A stretch of DNA of 64,000 nt from Acidobacteriota bacterium (GCA_022821145.1 JAJEEE010000084.1:10295-74294), one strand, 5' to 3'. Numbered from the stretch's first letter, positions 33,761 through 39,595 are shown. Program-made: numbers and translations. The notes: generated by a model from the sequence alone, not told the origin.

Positions 33761-34870
33761 ATGGTGTGGAATCTAGTGTACCGTCTCTAAATTGACTGCA
33801 CGTTATTAGTTTGAGCGAGTGCGGCGCGAGCGCGTTGGATTTTGGCGAGGATTTCTTCGCCCTTCTGGCGCCAGACATAGGGTTTCGGGTTGAGATTACG
33901 TTCTGCGAGGTAATCGGTCATGGCGTGGACCAACTCGTCAACGCTGCGGAAGCTGCCTTGGCGGACGACATCGTCGGTGAGATCGCGGAAGAATCGTTCC
34001 ACCAGGTTCATCCACGAACTGGAGGTGGGGGCGAAGTGCATCGCGATGCGGTCGCATCCGTGGGTCTTCCGGTGGCGTTGATTGCGCCACTGGATCCAGG
34101 ATTTCACTTTTGCGTGTTTGTGGGTGGCGTAATCGTCGGCAATCAAACGAAGCGTCAAGTCCGAGGGGGTGTCCCGGTCGAGTTGTTTGACGAAGGGCAG
34201 CCACTGCCGATGCGTGTGCCGGGCGGCCGTCTGATGGAAGATCTTTCCGTCCAGGTAGGACAACGCGGCGAACAGCGTGACGGCGCCATGCCGTTTGTAA
34301 TCGTGTGTCTGGGTGCGGCTGTACCCGCGCATGACGGGAAACCCGGGCTGTGTCCGGTCCAACGCCTGACATTGGCTCTTCTCATCGCAGCACAGTACGA
34401 GCGCCCGGTCCGGGGGGTTCAAGTACAAGCCGATCACGTCCCAGAACTTCGTCTCGAAGTTCTTGTCGTTGGACAGCTTGAAGGTGCGCGTGACATGGGG
34501 CTTGATGCCGTTGGCGCTCCAAAGCCGTTGCACCGTCGCCTTCGACACGCCTGTCGCCTCGGCCATTGTGCGCACCGACCAACGCGTCCGATGCGGCGGC
34601 GGCTGCGTCGCCCCGACAATGATCTTCTCCCGCACTTTCGGGTCGATCCCTTCCTTTATTGATCCTGTTCACGATCGGGGTCGTCACGGTCGCATGGATG
34701 CGGCTACGTTGAAACGAGCGTTCTTCTGGTGGGCGCCGGTTTCTGCATCGGGATCGCCGCGTCGTCCGTAGCGGGCTCCCGCCGACCAGCAGATTCCCGC
34801 CCAGAAAGAGGGAATCATCGAGGGAACGACGGAGGTTCATGGGGGTCAAGTTACTAAATATGAATGACTT
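33761..34870 (-). mobile_element. Probable IS630-family insertion sequence (about 1.1 kb); ends not resolved
   Basis: The transposase gene plus about 235 bp upstream lie between the hypothetical gene (ends 33760) and the TBDR gene (ends 34997). A weak inverted match GGAATCT...AAxTTGAC occurs near both ends. TIRs and TA target duplication were not confidently identified. Confidence 0.35.
33787..34635 (-). CDS. IS630-family (Tc1/mariner-type DDE) transposase
   Basis: MHFAPTSSSWMNLVERFF is the IS630 signature (HFTPxxSSWLNxVERWF). An HTH ...TGVSKATVQRLWSANGIKPH is present. Same length as ISY100 transposase (282 aa). Confidence 0.85.
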   Translation of the reverse strand: MREKIIVGATQPPPHRTRWSVRTMAEATGVSKATVQRLWSANGIKPHVTRTFKLSNDKNFETKFWDVIGLYLNPPDRALVLCCDEKSQCQALDRTQPGFPVMRGYSRTQTHDYKRHGAVTLFAALSYLDGKIFHQTAARHTHRQWLPFVKQLDRDTPSDLTLRLIADDYATHKHAKVKSWIQWRNQRHRKTHGCDRIAMHFAPTSSSWMNLVERFFRDLTDDVVRQGSFRSVDELVHAMTDYLAERNLNPKPYVWRQKGEEILAKIQRARAALAQTNNVQSI

Positions 34871-34996: not shown

Positions 34997-37330
34997 CTAA
35001 TGGAACCGCAGCGCGTAGCTCAACCGGATCCCGCGGCCCATTTCCGGCGCCCGGTCCTTGATGTACGACGTGTGGTTCCGATACAGCACGTTGGTCACGT
35101 TGCTGGCCGTGAACGACACGATGTGCGCCGAGCGCTGCTGCGGCCAGACGTAGGATGCCCGCACGTCGAGGACGGCGTAGCCGTCCGTTGCGGTTTCTCC
35201 GCGGAAGACGTCGTCCTGTCTCGCCGCGAACGTCAAACGCGGGCTCACCACGAATCCGCGGTACGGCAGGTCGAGGTCCAGCGTGCCGCGGAGCGGCGGA
35301 ATACGCGGCAGCGCCTCGCCGGTCGCGGTCAACTTGGCGTCGACGCGCCCGAGGCCGAGCGTGGCCCAGACCCCTCCGGCGAGCCGGATGCTGCCCCGTG
35401 CGTCGAACCCGACGAAGCGGCTGTCGCCCTGCAGGACGTTGAAGACCGGCAGGTTGTCGATTACGTCGCCGCTGCGGTGGCCGAAGATGAAGTTGCCGAT
35501 GTCGTAGACGAAGAAGTTCACGTCGCCGCGGACGCGGCCGCCCCGGTGGCGCAGGCTCACATCGAGGCCGAGAGTCGATTCGCCGTCCAGGTCCGGGTTC
35601 CCGACGTCGAAAGAGAGCGTGCCGACGTGAGCACCGAAATTGTACAGCTCCTCGATCGCCGGGGCGCGGTGCGAACGGGTCAGGTTGGCGACCAGGGCGT
35701 TGCCGGCGCCGAGGTCCGCATGGACACCGACCGATGCCGACACGCCGGTGAAGTCGCGGTCGCGGGTGGCGGGCGCCTCGACGTGGTGGCCGGCGCCCTC
35801 CTCATCGGCGTGCGGATGTCCGCCGGAACGCTCGGCCACCCGGTAGCGGTCACGGTCGACCCGCCCGCCGAACTGCAGGCGAAATCGGCCCAGGCTCAGC
35901 TCTTCGTAGGCGAAGGCCGCGAAGGACGCCAGATCGGTCCTTGGCGCCAGCGCCTCGACACCCACGGCCTGGAAATCGCGTACCCGCGTCCAGACGCCGA
36001 ACCTCCCGGCCAGACGGTCCGTCTGCCGCTGGTCGACGTCGGCGCGGACGATATAGGTATGGTTGTCGTAGCGGGTGCCGACGCGCTCATGGCCATCCTC
36101 GATCTCCAACTCGTTGTGGCCCCAGTCGATGACGTTCGCGCTGAGTCGCAGCCCCTCGACGAAGCGGTTGGTGAAGCCCTGGAAGCCGATATCGAAGCGC
36201 GCGGCGCGACGCTGCCAGTCGAGCGCGATCGCGGTCTCCCCGTGGTCGTCGCGGTGGTCGTTGTCGTGGGCGTCCATGTGTCCCGGGGATTCTTCCTCGT
36301 GGTGTGCGTGTAACTCGCCGGCGAACGGCACGCCGTACCGGCCGTCGTTCAACGTCACGTCGACGCTCGCGAAGAGTCGGTCGCGCGACCAGCCGACGCC
36401 GGCCCGGGCGTTCCTGGACAAGGTGGCGGAGTTCTCGACGATCCCCGCCGGCGTGGAGTAGTCCTCGGCGCGCCGCCGGCCGCCGCCGACCCAGTAATGG
36501 ACCCCGTTCCGCGCATGCTGCAGTCCGAAGTTCACGCCTCGCTGCGCGTTTGCGCTTCCCAGATCGGTGCTCGCCTGCGCCCGCGTGCCGTTGCCGGGCG
36601 ATTCCCGGTAACCCGCGTGCGGCGTGACGACGTTGACGAGCCCGCCGACCGCGTTCGAGCCGTACAACAACGTCGCCGGCCCGCGCACGATCTCGATTCG
36701 CTCCGCGCCGCCGGGATCGACCGCGACGCCATGGTCGCCCGACTCCCCCGACAGGTCACCGGTGCGAATCCCGTCCTGAAGGATCAGCACCCGGTCCCCG
36801 TCGAATCCGCGAATGATCGGCCTGTTCGCTCCGGGGCCGAATCCGCGGACCGCGATGCCCGGCTCGCGCTCGATGGCCGCGGCCAGGTCGCCGGCCGACT
36901 CCCGGGCGATGTCGAACGTTTCGACCGTCGACACGGCGTTGAAGGCCTCCAGCGTCGTCTGGGTTCCGCCCGCCGAGGCCGTCACGGTCACCTCCTCACG
37001 TATGGGCGAGAGGCTCAGCACGAAATCGGCCGTCGCCGTCCCGTCGGTTTCGATCGTCACCATCTGCCGCACGGCCGTCAGATGCTCTCGCTGCGCGAGG
37101 ACCTCGTAGGCGCCGGCCGGCAGGTTGTCGACCTCGAACCGGCCGCGTTCGTCGGTCAGCGCCGAGGCGCCGGAGCCCACGACCAGGATCAACGCGCCGC
37201 GAATCGAGTCTCCGTTCTCTTCCAGCGTCACGGTTCCGCGCACGGCGCCGGTCACGCGGGCCAGCAGCGGCGTTCCAGTGGCGGTGGCCACCACGGCCGC
37301 CGCAAGGCATGTCGTAATCGTTCGGTGCAT
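34997..37330 (-). CDS. TonB-dependent receptor with N-terminal carboxypeptidase-regulatory-like domain (Oar-like)
   Basis: Start refined to MHRTITTCLAAAVVATA. CarboxypepD_reg segment (VRGTVTLEENGDSIRGALILVV). Plug-region motifs (RGFGPGANRPIIRGFDGDRVLILQDG, IEIVRGPATLLYGSNAVGG). C-terminal ...GIRLSYALRFH. Confidence 0.85.
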   Translation of the reverse strand: MHRTITTCLAAAVVATATGTPLLARVTGAVRGTVTLEENGDSIRGALILVVGSGASALTDERGRFEVDNLPAGAYEVLAQREHLTAVRQMVTIETDGTATADFVLSLSPIREEVTVTASAGGTQTTLEAFNAVSTVETFDIARESAGDLAAAIEREPGIAVRGFGPGANRPIIRGFDGDRVLILQDGIRTGDLSGESGDHGVAVDPGGAERIEIVRGPATLLYGSNAVGGLVNVVTPHAGYRESPGNGTRAQASTDLGSANAQRGVNFGLQHARNGVHYWVGGGRRRAEDYSTPAGIVENSATLSRNARAGVGWSRDRLFASVDVTLNDGRYGVPFAGELHAHHEEESPGHMDAHDNDHRDDHGETAIALDWQRRAARFDIGFQGFTNRFVEGLRLSANVIDWGHNELEIEDGHERVGTRYDNHTYIVRADVDQRQTDRLAGRFGVWTRVRDFQAVGVEALAPRTDLASFAAFAYEELSLGRFRLQFGGRVDRDRYRVAERSGGHPHADEEGAGHHVEAPATRDRDFTGVSASVGVHADLGAGNALVANLTRSHRAPAIEELYNFGAHVGTLSFDVGNPDLDGESTLGLDVSLRHRGGRVRGDVNFFVYDIGNFIFGHRSGDVIDNLPVFNVLQGDSRFVGFDARGSIRLAGGVWATLGLGRVDAKLTATGEALPRIPPLRGTLDLDLPYRGFVVSPRLTFAARQDDVFRGETATDGYAVLDVRASYVWPQQRSAHIVSFTASNVTNVLYRNHTSYIKDRAPEMGRGIRLSYALRFH

Positions 37331-37574
37331 TGTTTTTCCCTTTCCTGAGTCCCAACGTTTCATCGATCCGCCAACGACGTGAATGGAGTCGACGTGACCC
37401 GCGAGCCGCCGCCGGACGCCGCGGGAGAACTCCACATGGCGATGCCGGCAGCCCGCGGTTCGCACGGCCACGGCGAATACGGCCGTCGCGCGGGGCGCAT
37501 TCGCAGGCGCCGCGGACAGGGGCGATTTCGCCGTCGATGGCGGTGTTACTGGCGAACGAAGCGCGTGATGGGTG

Positions 37575-37880
37575 CTAGGCGGGGGGGCCGCGGGCGGATA
37601 CGCGGCGGAAATGACCGGGCACGATCCACCCGACGGCGTCAACCGGCGCGATCGGCGCCGCAAGGTCCCTGTATTCGACCTGCAAGGGTCCGGACAGTTC
37701 CGCGGCGGCCTGGTGCCGGAGTTGGCAGACCGCGCAGTCCTGGTCGGCCGCGTGTTCTTCGTGACAGATGGCGGCGGCCACCGTGACGCCGGCGAGCAAC
37801 ATCGCCAGGGCGGCGATCCAGATGCGCCGGCCGGAGCCTCGTTGTGCGAGCCCTGTATGCACGGATCCCCTCTTGAACAT
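37575..37880 (-). CDS. Small membrane-anchored Cys/His-motif protein (DUF2946-like, putative metal-binding), copy A
   Basis: N-terminal TM (IWIAALAMLLAGVTVAAAI) followed by HEEHAADQDCAVCQLRHQAAAEL. Located directly upstream of the TBDR. A paralog lies at 38691..38996. Confidence 0.5.
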   Translation of the reverse strand: MFKRGSVHTGLAQRGSGRRIWIAALAMLLAGVTVAAAICHEEHAADQDCAVCQLRHQAAAELSGPLQVEYRDLAAPIAPVDAVGWIVPGHFRRVSARGPPA

Positions 37881-37964
37881 CAGCCTCGCGGAGATTGCCC
37901 GGAGCGGCCAGCGGGCATGCGGATGGACCGCGCGGCTATTCGAAGCGGGCATGCAGGAGACAAG

Positions 37965-38393
37965 TCAGCCGCCATGATCCGGATGCTCCTCATCGGCGCA
38001 TACCGAGCATGCGCCGGCTTGGCAGACACGGGCACTCTGCAGGAGGGCGCCCGCGAGGGTGAGGCTGCCGGCAGCCGACGTCACGGTCTCGGGCAGCGGC
38101 CCGAGCCATTCGGCGAGGGAAGCCGCCCACAGCGCGGCTCCGCCGACGAACGCGAGGACCACGACGGGGTTCTTGCGGCCGGGGCCCAGGACGAGCATCG
38201 CCGCGCCGAGAGAGACGGTCCCGACCCACACGGCTCGCTCGACGCCTTCGGAGAGTGCGAGCGCGGGTGTCGCCGCGACCAGGAACGGCGTGAGGACGCA
38301 GTGCAGGCCGCAACAGACCGCGGCGTACGCGGCAAGTCGCGATCCCGAAGCCAGGTACGCGCTCGACGGGATGGTTGCACGAGTGTCGTTCAT
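37965..38393 (-). CDS. MerT/MerC-like heavy-metal transport membrane protein
   Basis: Vicinal Cys in TM1 (LAAYAAVCCGLHCVLTPFLV), as in MerT ASACCLGPLVL. C-terminal CQAGACSVC metal-binding cluster. 3-4 TM helices. Start overlaps (ATGA) the stop of the upstream TBDR-leader remnant ORF. Confidence 0.4.
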   Translation of the reverse strand: MNDTRATIPSSAYLASGSRLAAYAAVCCGLHCVLTPFLVAATPALALSEGVERAVWVGTVSLGAAMLVLGPGRKNPVVVLAFVGGAALWAASLAEWLGPLPETVTSAAGSLTLAGALLQSARVCQAGACSVCADEEHPDHGG

Positions 38394-38460
38394 GGTGACG
38401 CGCCGACGGGAGCGGCGGCGGCCGCGGCGGCCGCAAGAGGTTTCGTAATCGCTCGGTGCA
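38390..38460 (-). pseudogene. Remnant of the first about 23 codons of a second TonB-dependent receptor (MHRAITKPLAAAAAAAAPVGASP*)
   Basis: Homologous to the start of the intact TBDR (MHRTITTCLAAAVVATATG). Truncated and followed by the MerT-like gene. Confidence 0.35.
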
Positions 38461-38690
38461 TTGCTCTTCTTCCCTTGTCCCGACGTTTCATCGATCCGCC
38501 AACGACGTCCGTGTGTCGCGAGCCGCCGCGGGCCGCCCGGGAGAACTCCACGTGGCGCTGCCGGCAGTCGGAGGCCCGCGCGGCGACGGCAGAGTCAGCC
38601 ATCGGGCTGGGCGCACTTGCATGCGCCGCCCACACGGGAAATCTCGCCGGCGATGGCGGTATTACAGGCGAACGAAGCGTGTGATGGGAG

Positions 38691-38996
38691 CTAGCCGGGG
38701 GGGCCGCGGGCGGATACGCGTCGGAAATGAGCGAGTCCGATCCACCCGGCGTCGTCAGCCGGCTCGATCGGTTCCACCAGGTCCGTGTATCCGACCAGCA
38801 AGGGTGTGGACAGTTCCGCGGCGGCCTGGTGCCGGAGTTGGCAGACCGCGCAGTCCTGGTCGGCTGCGTGTTCTTCGTGGCCGGCGGCCGTGGCGAGCGT
38901 GACGCCCGCCAGGACGAGGGCCAAGGCGACGACCCAGCCGTGCCAACCGGAGCCGCGTCCTGCGAATCCCTTGCGGATGGCTCTTCTCTTGACCAT
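38691..38996 (-). CDS. Small membrane-anchored Cys/His-motif protein (DUF2946-like), copy B
   Basis: MVKRRAIRKGFAGRGSGWHGWVVALALVLAGVTLATAAGHEEHAADQDCAVCQLRHQAAAEL... Same length (101 aa) as copy A, with an identical core motif. Confidence 0.5.
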   Translation of the reverse strand: MVKRRAIRKGFAGRGSGWHGWVVALALVLAGVTLATAAGHEEHAADQDCAVCQLRHQAAAELSTPLLVGYTDLVEPIEPADDAGWIGLAHFRRVSARGPPG

Positions 38997-39595
38997 CGGG
39001 AATCCAAATTAGCAGACGCGTCCCCACGGCCGCAAGTGGAATGCGGCGAAAACAAGGATGCCGCGGTGGCCACTTTCAGTGTGGTGTGGTTGCGGTGGTT
39101 GTACGCGGTTCGGGTTGGCGGTCCGGAAGCGCCGGCGGTTCGGGGTGTACCCAAGCAGTGCTCGGCGTATACGAGTTGAAACGTATCGAATTGCTTCGCG
39201 ACGTGTTCGTCTGGGCCTATAGGCGATCGGCCGCCCGCTACGTTGCGGTCAGGCAATCCCTGGGCAAGCCCGATCCCTTTCGGATGAAACACCGAAAGGC
39301 GCTTCACACGGTTGTCGGCGCGGTCGTTCGCGGACGCAAGAACAAGAAGGGGCTGCCGTCCAGGTCGACGCGTGGACTTGGCGGAACATCGAAGAACCGG
39401 AGCGCGAGCGGTTCCGGGAGGTTGCCGAACGAGAACTTCTGAACTTGCACGAGGGGAATTTCGCGCGCTACCGAATCAGCCCGCGCGAGTTTGCGGCCTG
39501 GCAGGAGGCCTGGACCCGTTGAACGACCCTCGGCAGGCTTCGGATGCCGTATGGTGGGGTACGTCTCTGATAACAGCCCCTCTACGGGAGCGTTC

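Follow-up and report, generated by a model that had tools for sequence, protein, structure and literature searches.

A duplicated upstream-ORF module, probably an arrest-peptide leader, at a metal-uptake locus of an Acidobacteriota bacterium

A metal-uptake locus with a duplicated unit

We analysed a 64,000-nt stretch of the genome assembly of an Acidobacteriota bacterium (GCA_022821145.1, JAJEEE010000084.1:10295-74294; hereafter, the window), which carries a metal-uptake locus within positions 34,997 to 39,595. All the features of the locus lie on the minus strand. A unit of ~600 nt, composed of a small upstream open reading frame (ORF), a long spacer and codons 1-23 of a TonB-dependent receptor, is present twice, with ~82-85% identity. 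The upstream copy (module B) precedes the gene of a MerC-family membrane protein and the downstream one (module A) precedes the complete receptor gene (Table 1). The repeated unit is probably a cis-acting regulatory module made of a promoter, the small upstream ORF and the ~230-245 nt spacer. On its sequence anatomy, and by analogy with characterised systems, we regard it as likely to be an arrest-peptide leader, duplicated in series, of the type of CruR (Bp2923, DUF2946) from Bordetella pertussis, a copper-responsive upstream ORF that controls the TonB-dependent transporter BfrG (Roy et al. 2022, PMC9426467).

The duplication was evident from both repeat finding and alignment. Repeat finding returned a gapless 300-nt pair (37413-37712 versus 38529-38828) with 82% identity, flanked by further repeat pairs that share with it an offset of ~1116-1131 nt, and the MAFFT alignment of 37250-37960 to 38380-39080 gave a mean column identity of 85%. 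Along the unit, the identity between the copies was 41% in the upstream region, 68% over ORF codons 1-39, 98% over codons 40-61 (HEEHAADQDCAVCQLRHQAAAEL), 81% over the linker (codons 62-91, where 13 of the 14 differing codons are non-synonymous), 94% from codon 92 to the stop, 81%, 78% and 71% over the three thirds of the spacer, and 60% over receptor codons 1-23. The spacer is conserved between the copies, yet less than the His/Cys motif and the C-terminus of the ORF.

A sequence-only reading of this DNA had described a diverged tandem duplication, in which two 101-aa membrane-anchored Cys/His ORFs are each accompanied by a conserved untranslated stretch of ~245 nt with inverted repeats, and in which copy A alone retains the full receptor while in copy B a stub of 23 codons is fused through ATGA to a membrane protein. 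This description held, coordinates of the duplication included. Indeed, both ORFs have a hydrophobic segment and the shared motif, the untranslated stretches measure 244 and 229 nt with the 71-81% identity reported above, and an inverted repeat, GGCGCAT-GCAA-GTGCGCC, is found in the leader at 38610-38627.

Table 1. Features of the locus, listed in the direction of transcription (window coordinates).
Feature	Coordinates	Strand	Remarks
Promoter-like element, module B	39006..39035	-	Conserved upstream of most family members; putative function
Upstream ORF B, 101 aa	38691..38996	-	Proposed metal-sensing ribosome-arrest peptide
Spacer B, 229 nt	38462..38690	-	Proposed attenuator region
Receptor stub, 23 codons, MHRAITKPLAAAAAAAAPVGASP then stop	38390..38461	-	Aligns with copy A receptor codons 1-23
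MerC-family membrane protein, 142 aa	37965..38393	-	Pfam PF03203; module B cargo
Degenerate promoter remnant before ORF A	37882..37910	-	TGGCCG-17-GAGGCT
Upstream ORF A, 101 aa	37575..37880	-	ATG at 37880; ORF B-like architecture
Spacer A, 244 nt	37331..37574	-	Proposed attenuator region
TonB-dependent receptor, 777 aa	34997..37330	-	Pfam domains; module A cargo

With one genome scanned per species, we obtained 80 related loci, which all belong to Vicinamibacterales or to other Acidobacteria metagenome-assembled genomes. By comparing these loci we found a promoter-like element, TTGCCG-17/18-TGnTAGCGT, which lies ~9 nt before the first ATG and is conserved at most of them (the strict pattern occurs in 47/82, and most of the others are near-matches). 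In module B it consists of a -35 TTGCGG (39035-39030), an 18-nt spacer ending in TGc and a -10 TAATTT (39011-39006), and it ends 9 nt before the ATG of ORF B; a generic sigma-70 scan called no promoter, this element included. The remnant upstream of ORF A aligns to the conserved element, with the T and the A of the -10 lost. Since the promoter of copy A is degenerate, module A would be transcribed by read-through from module B across the 84 nt of intergenic sequence that separate the MerC-like gene from ORF A, and the sequence suggests that a single operon probably contains the two modules, acting in series. The short distance between the promoter and the first ATG points to a leaderless, or very short-leader, mRNA. 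At many loci, an AGGAGG precedes a second ATG or GTG located 18 nt further downstream; in ORF A, a GTG preceded by AGAGGGGA lies 18 nt inside the ORF.

The homology of copy B to copy A covers the ribosome-binding site and the first 23 codons of the receptor, and ends at the ATGA junction with the MerC-like gene. In the stub, the start codon of the receptor and its ribosome-binding site are preserved; the TGA of the stub and the ATG of the MerC-like gene overlap, and this gene has no ribosome-binding site of its own. From this arrangement, the stub is probably a translational-coupling leader for the MerC-like gene. In the simplest history, the unit formed by promoter, ORF, spacer and receptor 5' end would have been duplicated, the upstream copy would then have captured the MerC-like gene through translational coupling, and the downstream copy would have lost its promoter because it was now transcribed from upstream. 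The outcome would be a single operon with two attenuators in series, in which the downstream copy still gates the receptor. The duplication would thus illustrate how such modules spread, a copy that carries the first codons of its old cargo capturing a new gene by translational coupling. The same arrangement occurs in the two closest relatives of the locus (L001 and L002, ORF B 95-97% identical) and in no other of the 80, and it is only in these two and in the window that a MerC-family gene follows the leader.

Mobile DNA abuts the locus, as a DDE_3 (IS630-like) transposase gene lies at 33787-34635 on the minus strand, 361 nt downstream of the receptor and in the same orientation. On the other side, the remnant of a Fic-family gene (39041-39442, plus strand) adjoins the module B promoter; it matches, with 88% identity, residues 343-409 of a 466-aa Fic protein, the one encoded beside the locus in L001, and ~1 kb of the L001-type Fic gene is missing from the window.

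The upstream ORF family and its spacers

ORF A and ORF B are 67% identical in protein and share the motif HEEHxxDQDCAVCQLRH, with the ligand pattern H-x2-H-x5-C-x2-C-x3-H, which offers Cys2-His3 and acidic ligands. In ORF B, a membrane helix (~21-39) is followed by H40-E-E-H43...D46-Q-D48-C49-A-V-C52-Q-L-R-H56, by a 44-residue linker and by R97-G-P-P100 and Gly101. The two tails, RRVSARGPPA in A and RRVSARGPPG in B, both contain RGPP and both end on a TAG stop; the C-terminus of ORF A reads HFRRVSARGPPA up to the stop. The Kyte-Doolittle maximum over 19 residues is 2.4 in A (residues 20-38) and 2.1 in B (21-39), with Arg/Lys residues preceding the hydrophobic segment. AlphaFold2, run with the family alignment, predicted a single confident helix (17-63) and a disordered C-terminal third (mean pLDDT 64.6); according to this model the peptide is not a folded protein.

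Among 5.8 billion proteins searched, the ORF had 111 homologues, none of which has a recorded Pfam domain; the few named ones come from Acidobacteria metagenome-assembled genomes. Among 43 aligned members, H43, C49-A-V-C52-Q-L-R55 and P100 are invariant, and H40, E41, E42, D46, Q47, H56, Q57, W85, H90, R93, A96, R97 and P99 are near-invariant. The CxxC (C49-A-V-C52) is present in all 43 of these and in 82/82 ORFs at the loci. Of the 80 scorable ORFs, 76 have 44 residues between CxxC and R[AG]PP and two have 43, and the stop falls exactly one residue past Pro-Pro in ~72 of 80. The family tails are of the form AR[AG]PP[AVG] before the stop, with Ala (44/73 canonical tails) or Gly (29/73) at position 98. 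A genome can carry up to six of these loci, as in isolate 2866737b (L003, L015, L022, L033, L039 and L044). An exhaustive profile search of 1.8 billion representatives reached only additional proteins of this architecture, 85-135 aa long and unannotated, the named ones from other Acidobacteriota. This anatomy and its conservation are directly observed.

Synonymous codons vary at most of the conserved residues (four codons each for R55 and P99, for example), which indicates that the ORF is translated and that selection acts on the peptide. Two positions behave differently. The codon of Pro100 is CCC in 73/75 loci, while the first Pro codon (P99) uses all four, and the stop is TAG in 70/82 ORFs versus 49% TAG among the long ORFs of the same loci. 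Read from the sequence, the CCC and TAG biases reflect constraint at the level of nucleotides or of tRNA where the stall is proposed (window 37575-37586 and 38691-38702).

In spacer B, a pyrimidine-rich block with more C than G (~38656-38690) directly follows the stop, the GC hairpin formed by the inverted repeat mentioned above has no U-tract, and a purine-rich ribosome-binding region precedes the stub ATG. In spacer A, a C>G block (~37512-37616) spans the end of the ORF, GC-rich hairpins are present and a ribosome-binding site, GGAAAGGGA, lies ahead of the receptor ATG; blocks of this spacer are common to 25 aligned homologous spacers. The excess of C over G that straddles the ORF stops reaches +24% in B and +27% in A, and 94-100% of the family loci have more C than G between -75 and +50 nt relative to the stop. 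Nearly all loci, regardless of their cargo, conserve the ~35 nt that follow the stop (TAG-yy-CCCGTCACGCGCTkCGTTTCGyCC). About one third of the loci share a GCGCAT-loop-ATGCGC hairpin at +50 to +65, with positions and sequences that vary; hairpins in the spacers are expected at 67% G+C. A generic terminator scan found no intrinsic terminator on the minus strand.

The sequence-only reading had overlooked the R-G/A-P-P, the constant 44 residues that separate it from the CxxC, and the stop placed one codon after it. Taken together, these three features point to the small ORF as an arrest sensor of CruR/CutF type and to the spacer as its attenuator.

A second, paralogous family of small ORFs terminated by RAPP was found at no fewer than 10 loci (L011:9123-9392, L021:9097-9366, L024:6595-6900, L029:4647-4916 and others), located between the receptor, or a receptor remnant, and genes for an ABC-2 ATPase and permease. 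These ORFs encode ~89 aa (MRRSRSTL...TTPHFHDEAE..DDTCVLCHVQ, a 42-residue linker and a SRAPPA end before the stop) and had no Pfam match. Their presence inside related operons suggests that serial leaders are common in the clade. In L012 (6373-6759), L022 (6453-6680) and L049, all that remains of the receptor behind the leader and spacer is a C-terminal fragment (aligned from residues 656-738), after which come the second RAPP ORF and the ABC-2 genes. These fragments indicate that the receptor gene has been repeatedly deleted and the leader kept.

Proposed mechanism, cargo and sensed metal

Of the arrest cores, RAPP and RGPP are the most robust pair (Fujiwara et al. 2025, PMC12992588); in vitro, CruR itself stalls while its two Pro codons occupy the P and A sites, and in a genome survey RAPP/RGPP ORFs were enriched upstream of TonB-dependent receptors (PMC12992588). 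Regulation by CruR requires translation of the ORF as well as the RAPP and the CXXC; a Rho-dependent terminator is marked by a C>G region that extends from the end of the ORF into the 162-nt spacer, and copper relieves the arrest and triggers termination (PMC9426467). From these relatives and from the anatomy described above we infer, for the window family, that the ribosome stalls, that Rho is involved, in which direction regulation goes and which metal is sensed.

In the mechanism that we propose, the membrane-targeted ORF peptide, which carries its His/Cys motif 44 residues before R-G/A-P-P and its stop one codon later, would stall the ribosome, Pro99 occupying its P site and Pro100 its A site. 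The stalled ribosome would cover the C-rich RNA around the stop, so that Rho could not load, the polymerase would read through and the uptake gene would be made. When the metal is present, it would bind the His/Cys segment just emerged from the ribosome, and folding or tension would free the arrest. The ribosome would then terminate and leave, the C-rich RNA would be exposed and transcription would be terminated in the spacer. At the window locus, the upstream module would drive the MerC-family protein, probably via the coupling of the receptor stub, and the downstream module would gate the receptor. The spacer is best read, by analogy with CruR, as an attenuator that would serve for Rho loading, pausing and termination and would then provide the ribosome-binding site of the next gene. 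Granted this class of mechanism, the balance tips towards a Rho step.

The stalled ribosome could instead control translation, possibly alongside Rho, if the post-stop pyrimidine block paired with the downstream ribosome-binding site and the stall kept this helix open. Precedents are SecM-secA, MifM-yidC2 and CutF-cutO, CutF operating by the opening of a stem-loop; the block lies within or just past the footprint of a ribosome stalled at Pro99/Pro100, and in ~17 of 25 spacers the 30 nt that precede the start are paired, in the minimum-energy fold, with the first 5-25 nt past the stop. However, the energy of this duplex is no better than that of composition-matched shuffles (mean z = +0.15 over 49 loci; z = +1.4 for copy A), and masking of the receptor ribosome-binding site by the post-stop block as an anti-Shine-Dalgarno sequence was rejected as a candidate because shuffles pair equally. 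Moreover, spacers of 230-245 nt far exceed those of the known systems that unmask a Shine-Dalgarno sequence, and the authors of the CutF study consider unmasking likely limited to short spacers. We judge translational control unlikely.

Which metal would be sensed by the proposed arrest-peptide leader can be approached from the genes behind it. The window receptor has CarboxypepD_reg, Plug and barrel domains (Pfam). Its best NCBIfam match is ZnuD (NF038289), with 206 bits versus 49 bits for the TonB-copper model; this score is far under the ZnuD equivalog cut-off of 950. By sequence, its closest solved relative is ZnuD (4rdr, E=1.7e-32), followed by OprC (3e-10). The receptor has His/Asp-rich loops (HAHHEEESPGHMDAHDNDHRDDH); loops of this kind bind zinc in ZnuD structures. 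A His-rich loop (at least 5 His in 25 aa) is found in 48 of the 57 distinct receptor orthologues. The alignment of the orthologues confirms the ATG at 37330, with its purine-rich site, as the receptor start; an alternative ATG at 37363 (MKRWDSGKGK...) was rejected because it is not conserved among them.

The 142-aa protein behind module B had been called MerT-like in the sequence-only reading. It belongs instead to the MerC family, with 34.2 bits for PF03203 (cut-off 27.6; E=4e-8) and residues 19-116 aligned to profile positions 2-102 of 108, and no MerT match was obtained from Pfam or NCBIfam at E up to 0.1. It has a CCGLHC in the first helix and a C-terminal CQAGACSVCADEEHPDH tail.

Across the family, BLAST and Pfam searches found receptor orthologues behind the leader in 58 of ~79 informative loci, with 54-78% identity and with the BLAST alignment starting 176-505 nt downstream of the ORF stop. 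In L028 and L077, the gene after the leader encodes a COG0523 GTPase with CobW domains, and the L028 protein aligned end-to-end to ZigA with 561 bits (cut-off 600). Some loci have ABC-2 ATPase and permease sets behind the same leader; in Caulobacter, the ABC-2-type set znuGHI is Zur-regulated (PMC4176598). The further cargo comprises a Peripla_BP_2/FecCD importer, a Pyr_redox_3 protein with a FeoB-like Gate protein, DUF169 and a beta-propeller protein. None of the copper neighbours typical of CruR (PepSY_TM, PCuAC, ScoC, YcnI, CopC, OprC-type receptors) was found behind this leader. Judged by the gene families, the cargo is a zinc-limitation set and not a copper set.

Seven of the nine receptor orthologues that do not have the His/Asp-repeat loop come from one sub-group of loci (L017, L025, L041, L044, L045, L052 and L056). 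In L017, L025, L041, L052 and L056 the receptor is followed by an apparently fused MFS/spermidine-synthase gene, which the family models identify in L017 only; the same fusion also follows the His-rich receptor of L020, so that its correlation with loop loss is inexact. A loop-less receptor accompanied by this fusion could represent a metallophore-based uptake variant under the same leader.

Since the leader family heads genes of zinc-limitation type, zinc is the most likely metal, with copper next and then other divalent metals; given the mechanism class, the sequence evidence puts zinc as the sensed metal at about an even chance. The locus had been described earlier as one for copper or mercury acquisition. 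Its metal-uptake character stands, while the copper/mercury theme is not supported, as the leader heads ZnuD-like, ZigA-like and ABC-2 genes. There is precedent for a zinc-driven release of arrest in an engineered system, where the Zn2+-dependent folding of the Cys2His2 ADR1a finger releases the SecM arrest (Nilsson et al. 2015, PMC4571824); in the literature searched we found no report of a zinc-responsive arrest peptide. Tentatively, and at somewhat less than even likelihood, we propose that the family is a zinc-sensing nascent-peptide switch, in which the Cys2-His3 segment outside the tunnel binds Zn(II), releases the R-A/G-P-P arrest and shuts off zinc-uptake operons. In that case both RAPP-leader families would mark a zinc-limitation regulon of up to six or more operons per Vicinamibacterales genome, often with serial leaders in one operon, and would form a post-transcriptional counterpart of Zur.

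The same arrest mechanism could alternatively sense copper, as in CruR, with the receptor as a copper importer. CruR and CutF, the only characterised relatives, do sense copper, through CxxC or CxxxC; CxxC is well known as a Cu(I) site, the ORFs repeatedly give a weak match to DUF2946, and MerC-type proteins have soft-metal Cys sites. Against this stand the receptor scores and E values given above, the lack of any of CruR's copper-linked neighbours behind the leader, the ZigA-like GTPase and znuGHI-like ABC-2 sets that share it, and the three extra conserved His and the acidic residues of the motif, which suit Zn(II). For these reasons a copper sensor appears to us quite unlikely.

Several points weigh against the zinc-switch interpretation, or against the likeness to CruR from which it starts. 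The Cys/His motif would also bind Cu, Ni, Co or Cd, part of the cargo (Peripla_BP_2/FecCD, the FeoB-like Gate protein, Pyr_redox_3 and the MFS/spermidine-synthase fusion) does not point to zinc, and no link between MerC and zinc was found in the literature searched. Part of the C-richness around the stop is forced by the Ala/Arg/Pro codons of the arrest motif. In L001 and L002 (L001:3679-3802 and L002:7362-7485 versus window 37520-37640), the Pro-Pro homopolymer of ORF A has 8 C instead of 7, and the resulting +1 frameshift reads 11 codons past RGPP to a TAA; this may be real decay of that copy or a shared homopolymer error. Finally, the ORFs had been called DUF2946-like, and the likeness is recurrent but sub-threshold. 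Against a Pfam gathering threshold of 23.7 bits (PF11162), copy B scored 15.1 and copy A had no match; sub-threshold matches only were obtained for 16/43 close members and 23/36 wider members, and the best score in the wider superfamily was 21.4 bits. On these scores the likeness to CruR may reflect homology, but could also be convergent. The sub-threshold matches always align to profile positions ~50-117, the CxxC-to-RAPP half, and word-indexed and exhaustive profile searches returned only unannotated acidobacterial relatives, with no hit up to the Pfam cut-off. Despite its CruR-like sequence features, the upstream ORF family is not filed as a member of DUF2946.

The small ORFs might also be read as mature, functional proteins that bind metal and are anchored in the membrane, for instance chaperones or receptor partners, separated from the next gene by ordinary intergenic DNA, the peptide having no part in regulation. 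Such a role would agree with the membrane helix and the conserved metal-ligand motif, and DUF2946 proteins have long been annotated as periplasmic proteins of unknown function. The strongest constraints, however, fit a nascent chain only, namely the terminal R-G/A-P-P, the fixed 44-residue linker of variable sequence and the stop one codon on, and RAPP and RGPP are strongly avoided in ordinary proteins (PMC12992588). In addition, the ORF always comes first, before unrelated cargo and with a long spacer of conserved start, and its predicted structure is the one helix with a disordered tail described above. Thus, the 101-aa ORFs are probably not metal-handling proteins, and we hold this explanation to be highly unlikely.

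Weakest of all, and very improbable, is the idea, already advanced in the sequence-only reading, that the leader RNA or DNA itself senses the metal as a riboswitch or as a Zur/Fur-type operator: although the spacers are conserved between the copies, share blocks with homologous loci and contain GC-rich hairpins, Rfam gave no match in the whole window at gathering thresholds and none in 37200-39400 at E up to 10, RNAalifold on the 25 homologous spacers gave a consensus of only 3 bp (-0.3 kcal/mol), the hairpins vary in position and sequence and are of a kind expected from base composition, the best-conserved parts of the module lie inside the ORF (98% and 94%), no palindromic operator-like motif recurs upstream of the loci (only the promoter-like element does), and CruR RNA did not sense metal in vitro (PMC9426467). 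The spacer is therefore probably not a riboswitch, and the authors of the CruR study state that no riboswitch is known for copper or zinc (PMC9426467).

So far, nascent peptides that sense a metal while on the ribosome and thereby regulate its uptake have been shown only for copper (CruR, CutF). If the family is zinc-responsive, the principle would reach a second top-of-the-series metal, in a compact and testable sensor of ~100 codons and 240 nt, and would hint at how Acidobacteriota/Vicinamibacterales, abundant and poorly studied in soil and marine environments, organise their response to zinc starvation. Were the zinc switch true, it would be the first natural zinc-responsive arrest peptide, the natural counterpart of the engineered ADR1a-SecM. 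The 44-residue ruler, the stop one codon past Pro-Pro and the near-invariant CCC/TAG are in any case constraints usable in structural work on RAPP arrest.

Comparison with known systems

Among known systems, MerC (PF03203) corresponds to the cargo of module B, which scores above the family cut-off and carries Cys residues in its first helix as well as a tail rich in Cys at the C-terminus. The locus differs in having no mer operon context (no merR, merA, merP or merT). This, together with the uptake-type leader and the adjacent receptor, makes import of another thiophilic divalent metal more plausible than mercury resistance. The Zur regulon (ZnuD in Neisseria, ZigA in Acinetobacter, ZnuK/ZnuGHI in Caulobacter; PMC4176598) has the same kinds of cargo as those behind the leader. 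There, however, the Zur repressor acts at an operator, whereas here a leader peptide and a spacer precede each operon, and the receptor remains, as stated above, far below the ZnuD equivalog cut-off.

The arrest peptides ApdA, ApdP and ApcA, the Streptomyces upstream ORFs (PMC12992588) and SecM also have an R-A/G-P-P core near the C-terminus of a small secretory or membrane protein upstream of a regulated gene. Those studied experimentally monitor protein export or copper, and neither a ligand motif of the window type nor a link to zinc is described among them. CutF of Rhodobacter capsulatus (Ozturk et al. 2023, PMC9973294; bioRxiv 10.1101/2025.02.05.636593) is likewise shorter than 150 aa, combines a signal or membrane segment with a Cys/His motif, has a Pro-rich stalling motif at its C-terminus and is placed upstream of metal-homeostasis genes. 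In that system the metal increases stalling, opens a nearby stem-loop and turns on a detoxification gene over a short spacer, whereas the window modules have uptake cargo and a long spacer, with an expected polarity opposite to that of CutF, as in CruR. According to its authors, not every CutF-like protein is copper-specific, and nickel or cobalt is suggested for His-only clusters; zinc is mentioned neither in the CutF paper nor in that of Fujiwara et al. (PMC12992588).

The closest comparison is with CruR. Both have a small exported or membrane-targeted peptide as the first product of the operon, made of one helix and a disordered tail, and a CxxC at fixed distance from a C-terminal R-x-P-P (45 residues in CruR, where a change of 1-2 residues is tolerated (PMC9426467), and 44 here). 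In both, a C>G region covers the ORF end and the spacer start, and a long spacer (162 nt in CruR, 229-244 nt here) leads to a TonB-dependent receptor, a metal-uptake cargo expected to be on when the metal is scarce. The window family differs in scoring under the Pfam DUF2946 cut-off, in belonging to a phylum, Acidobacteriota, absent from CruR's list of >2000 homologues, in the length of the peptides (95-101 aa versus 145) and in the stop one residue after PP instead of three. Its ligand motif is extended by three conserved His and acidic residues, its cargo is of zinc type rather than copper type, and it is multi-copy (up to 6 per genome) and serial within operons. Distant homology or convergence may each explain the likeness. 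The module thus appears to be a known class of device in a new setting, that is, in a new phylum, in a family outside the curated model, in a probably zinc-related regulon, in multiple copies and in serial use.

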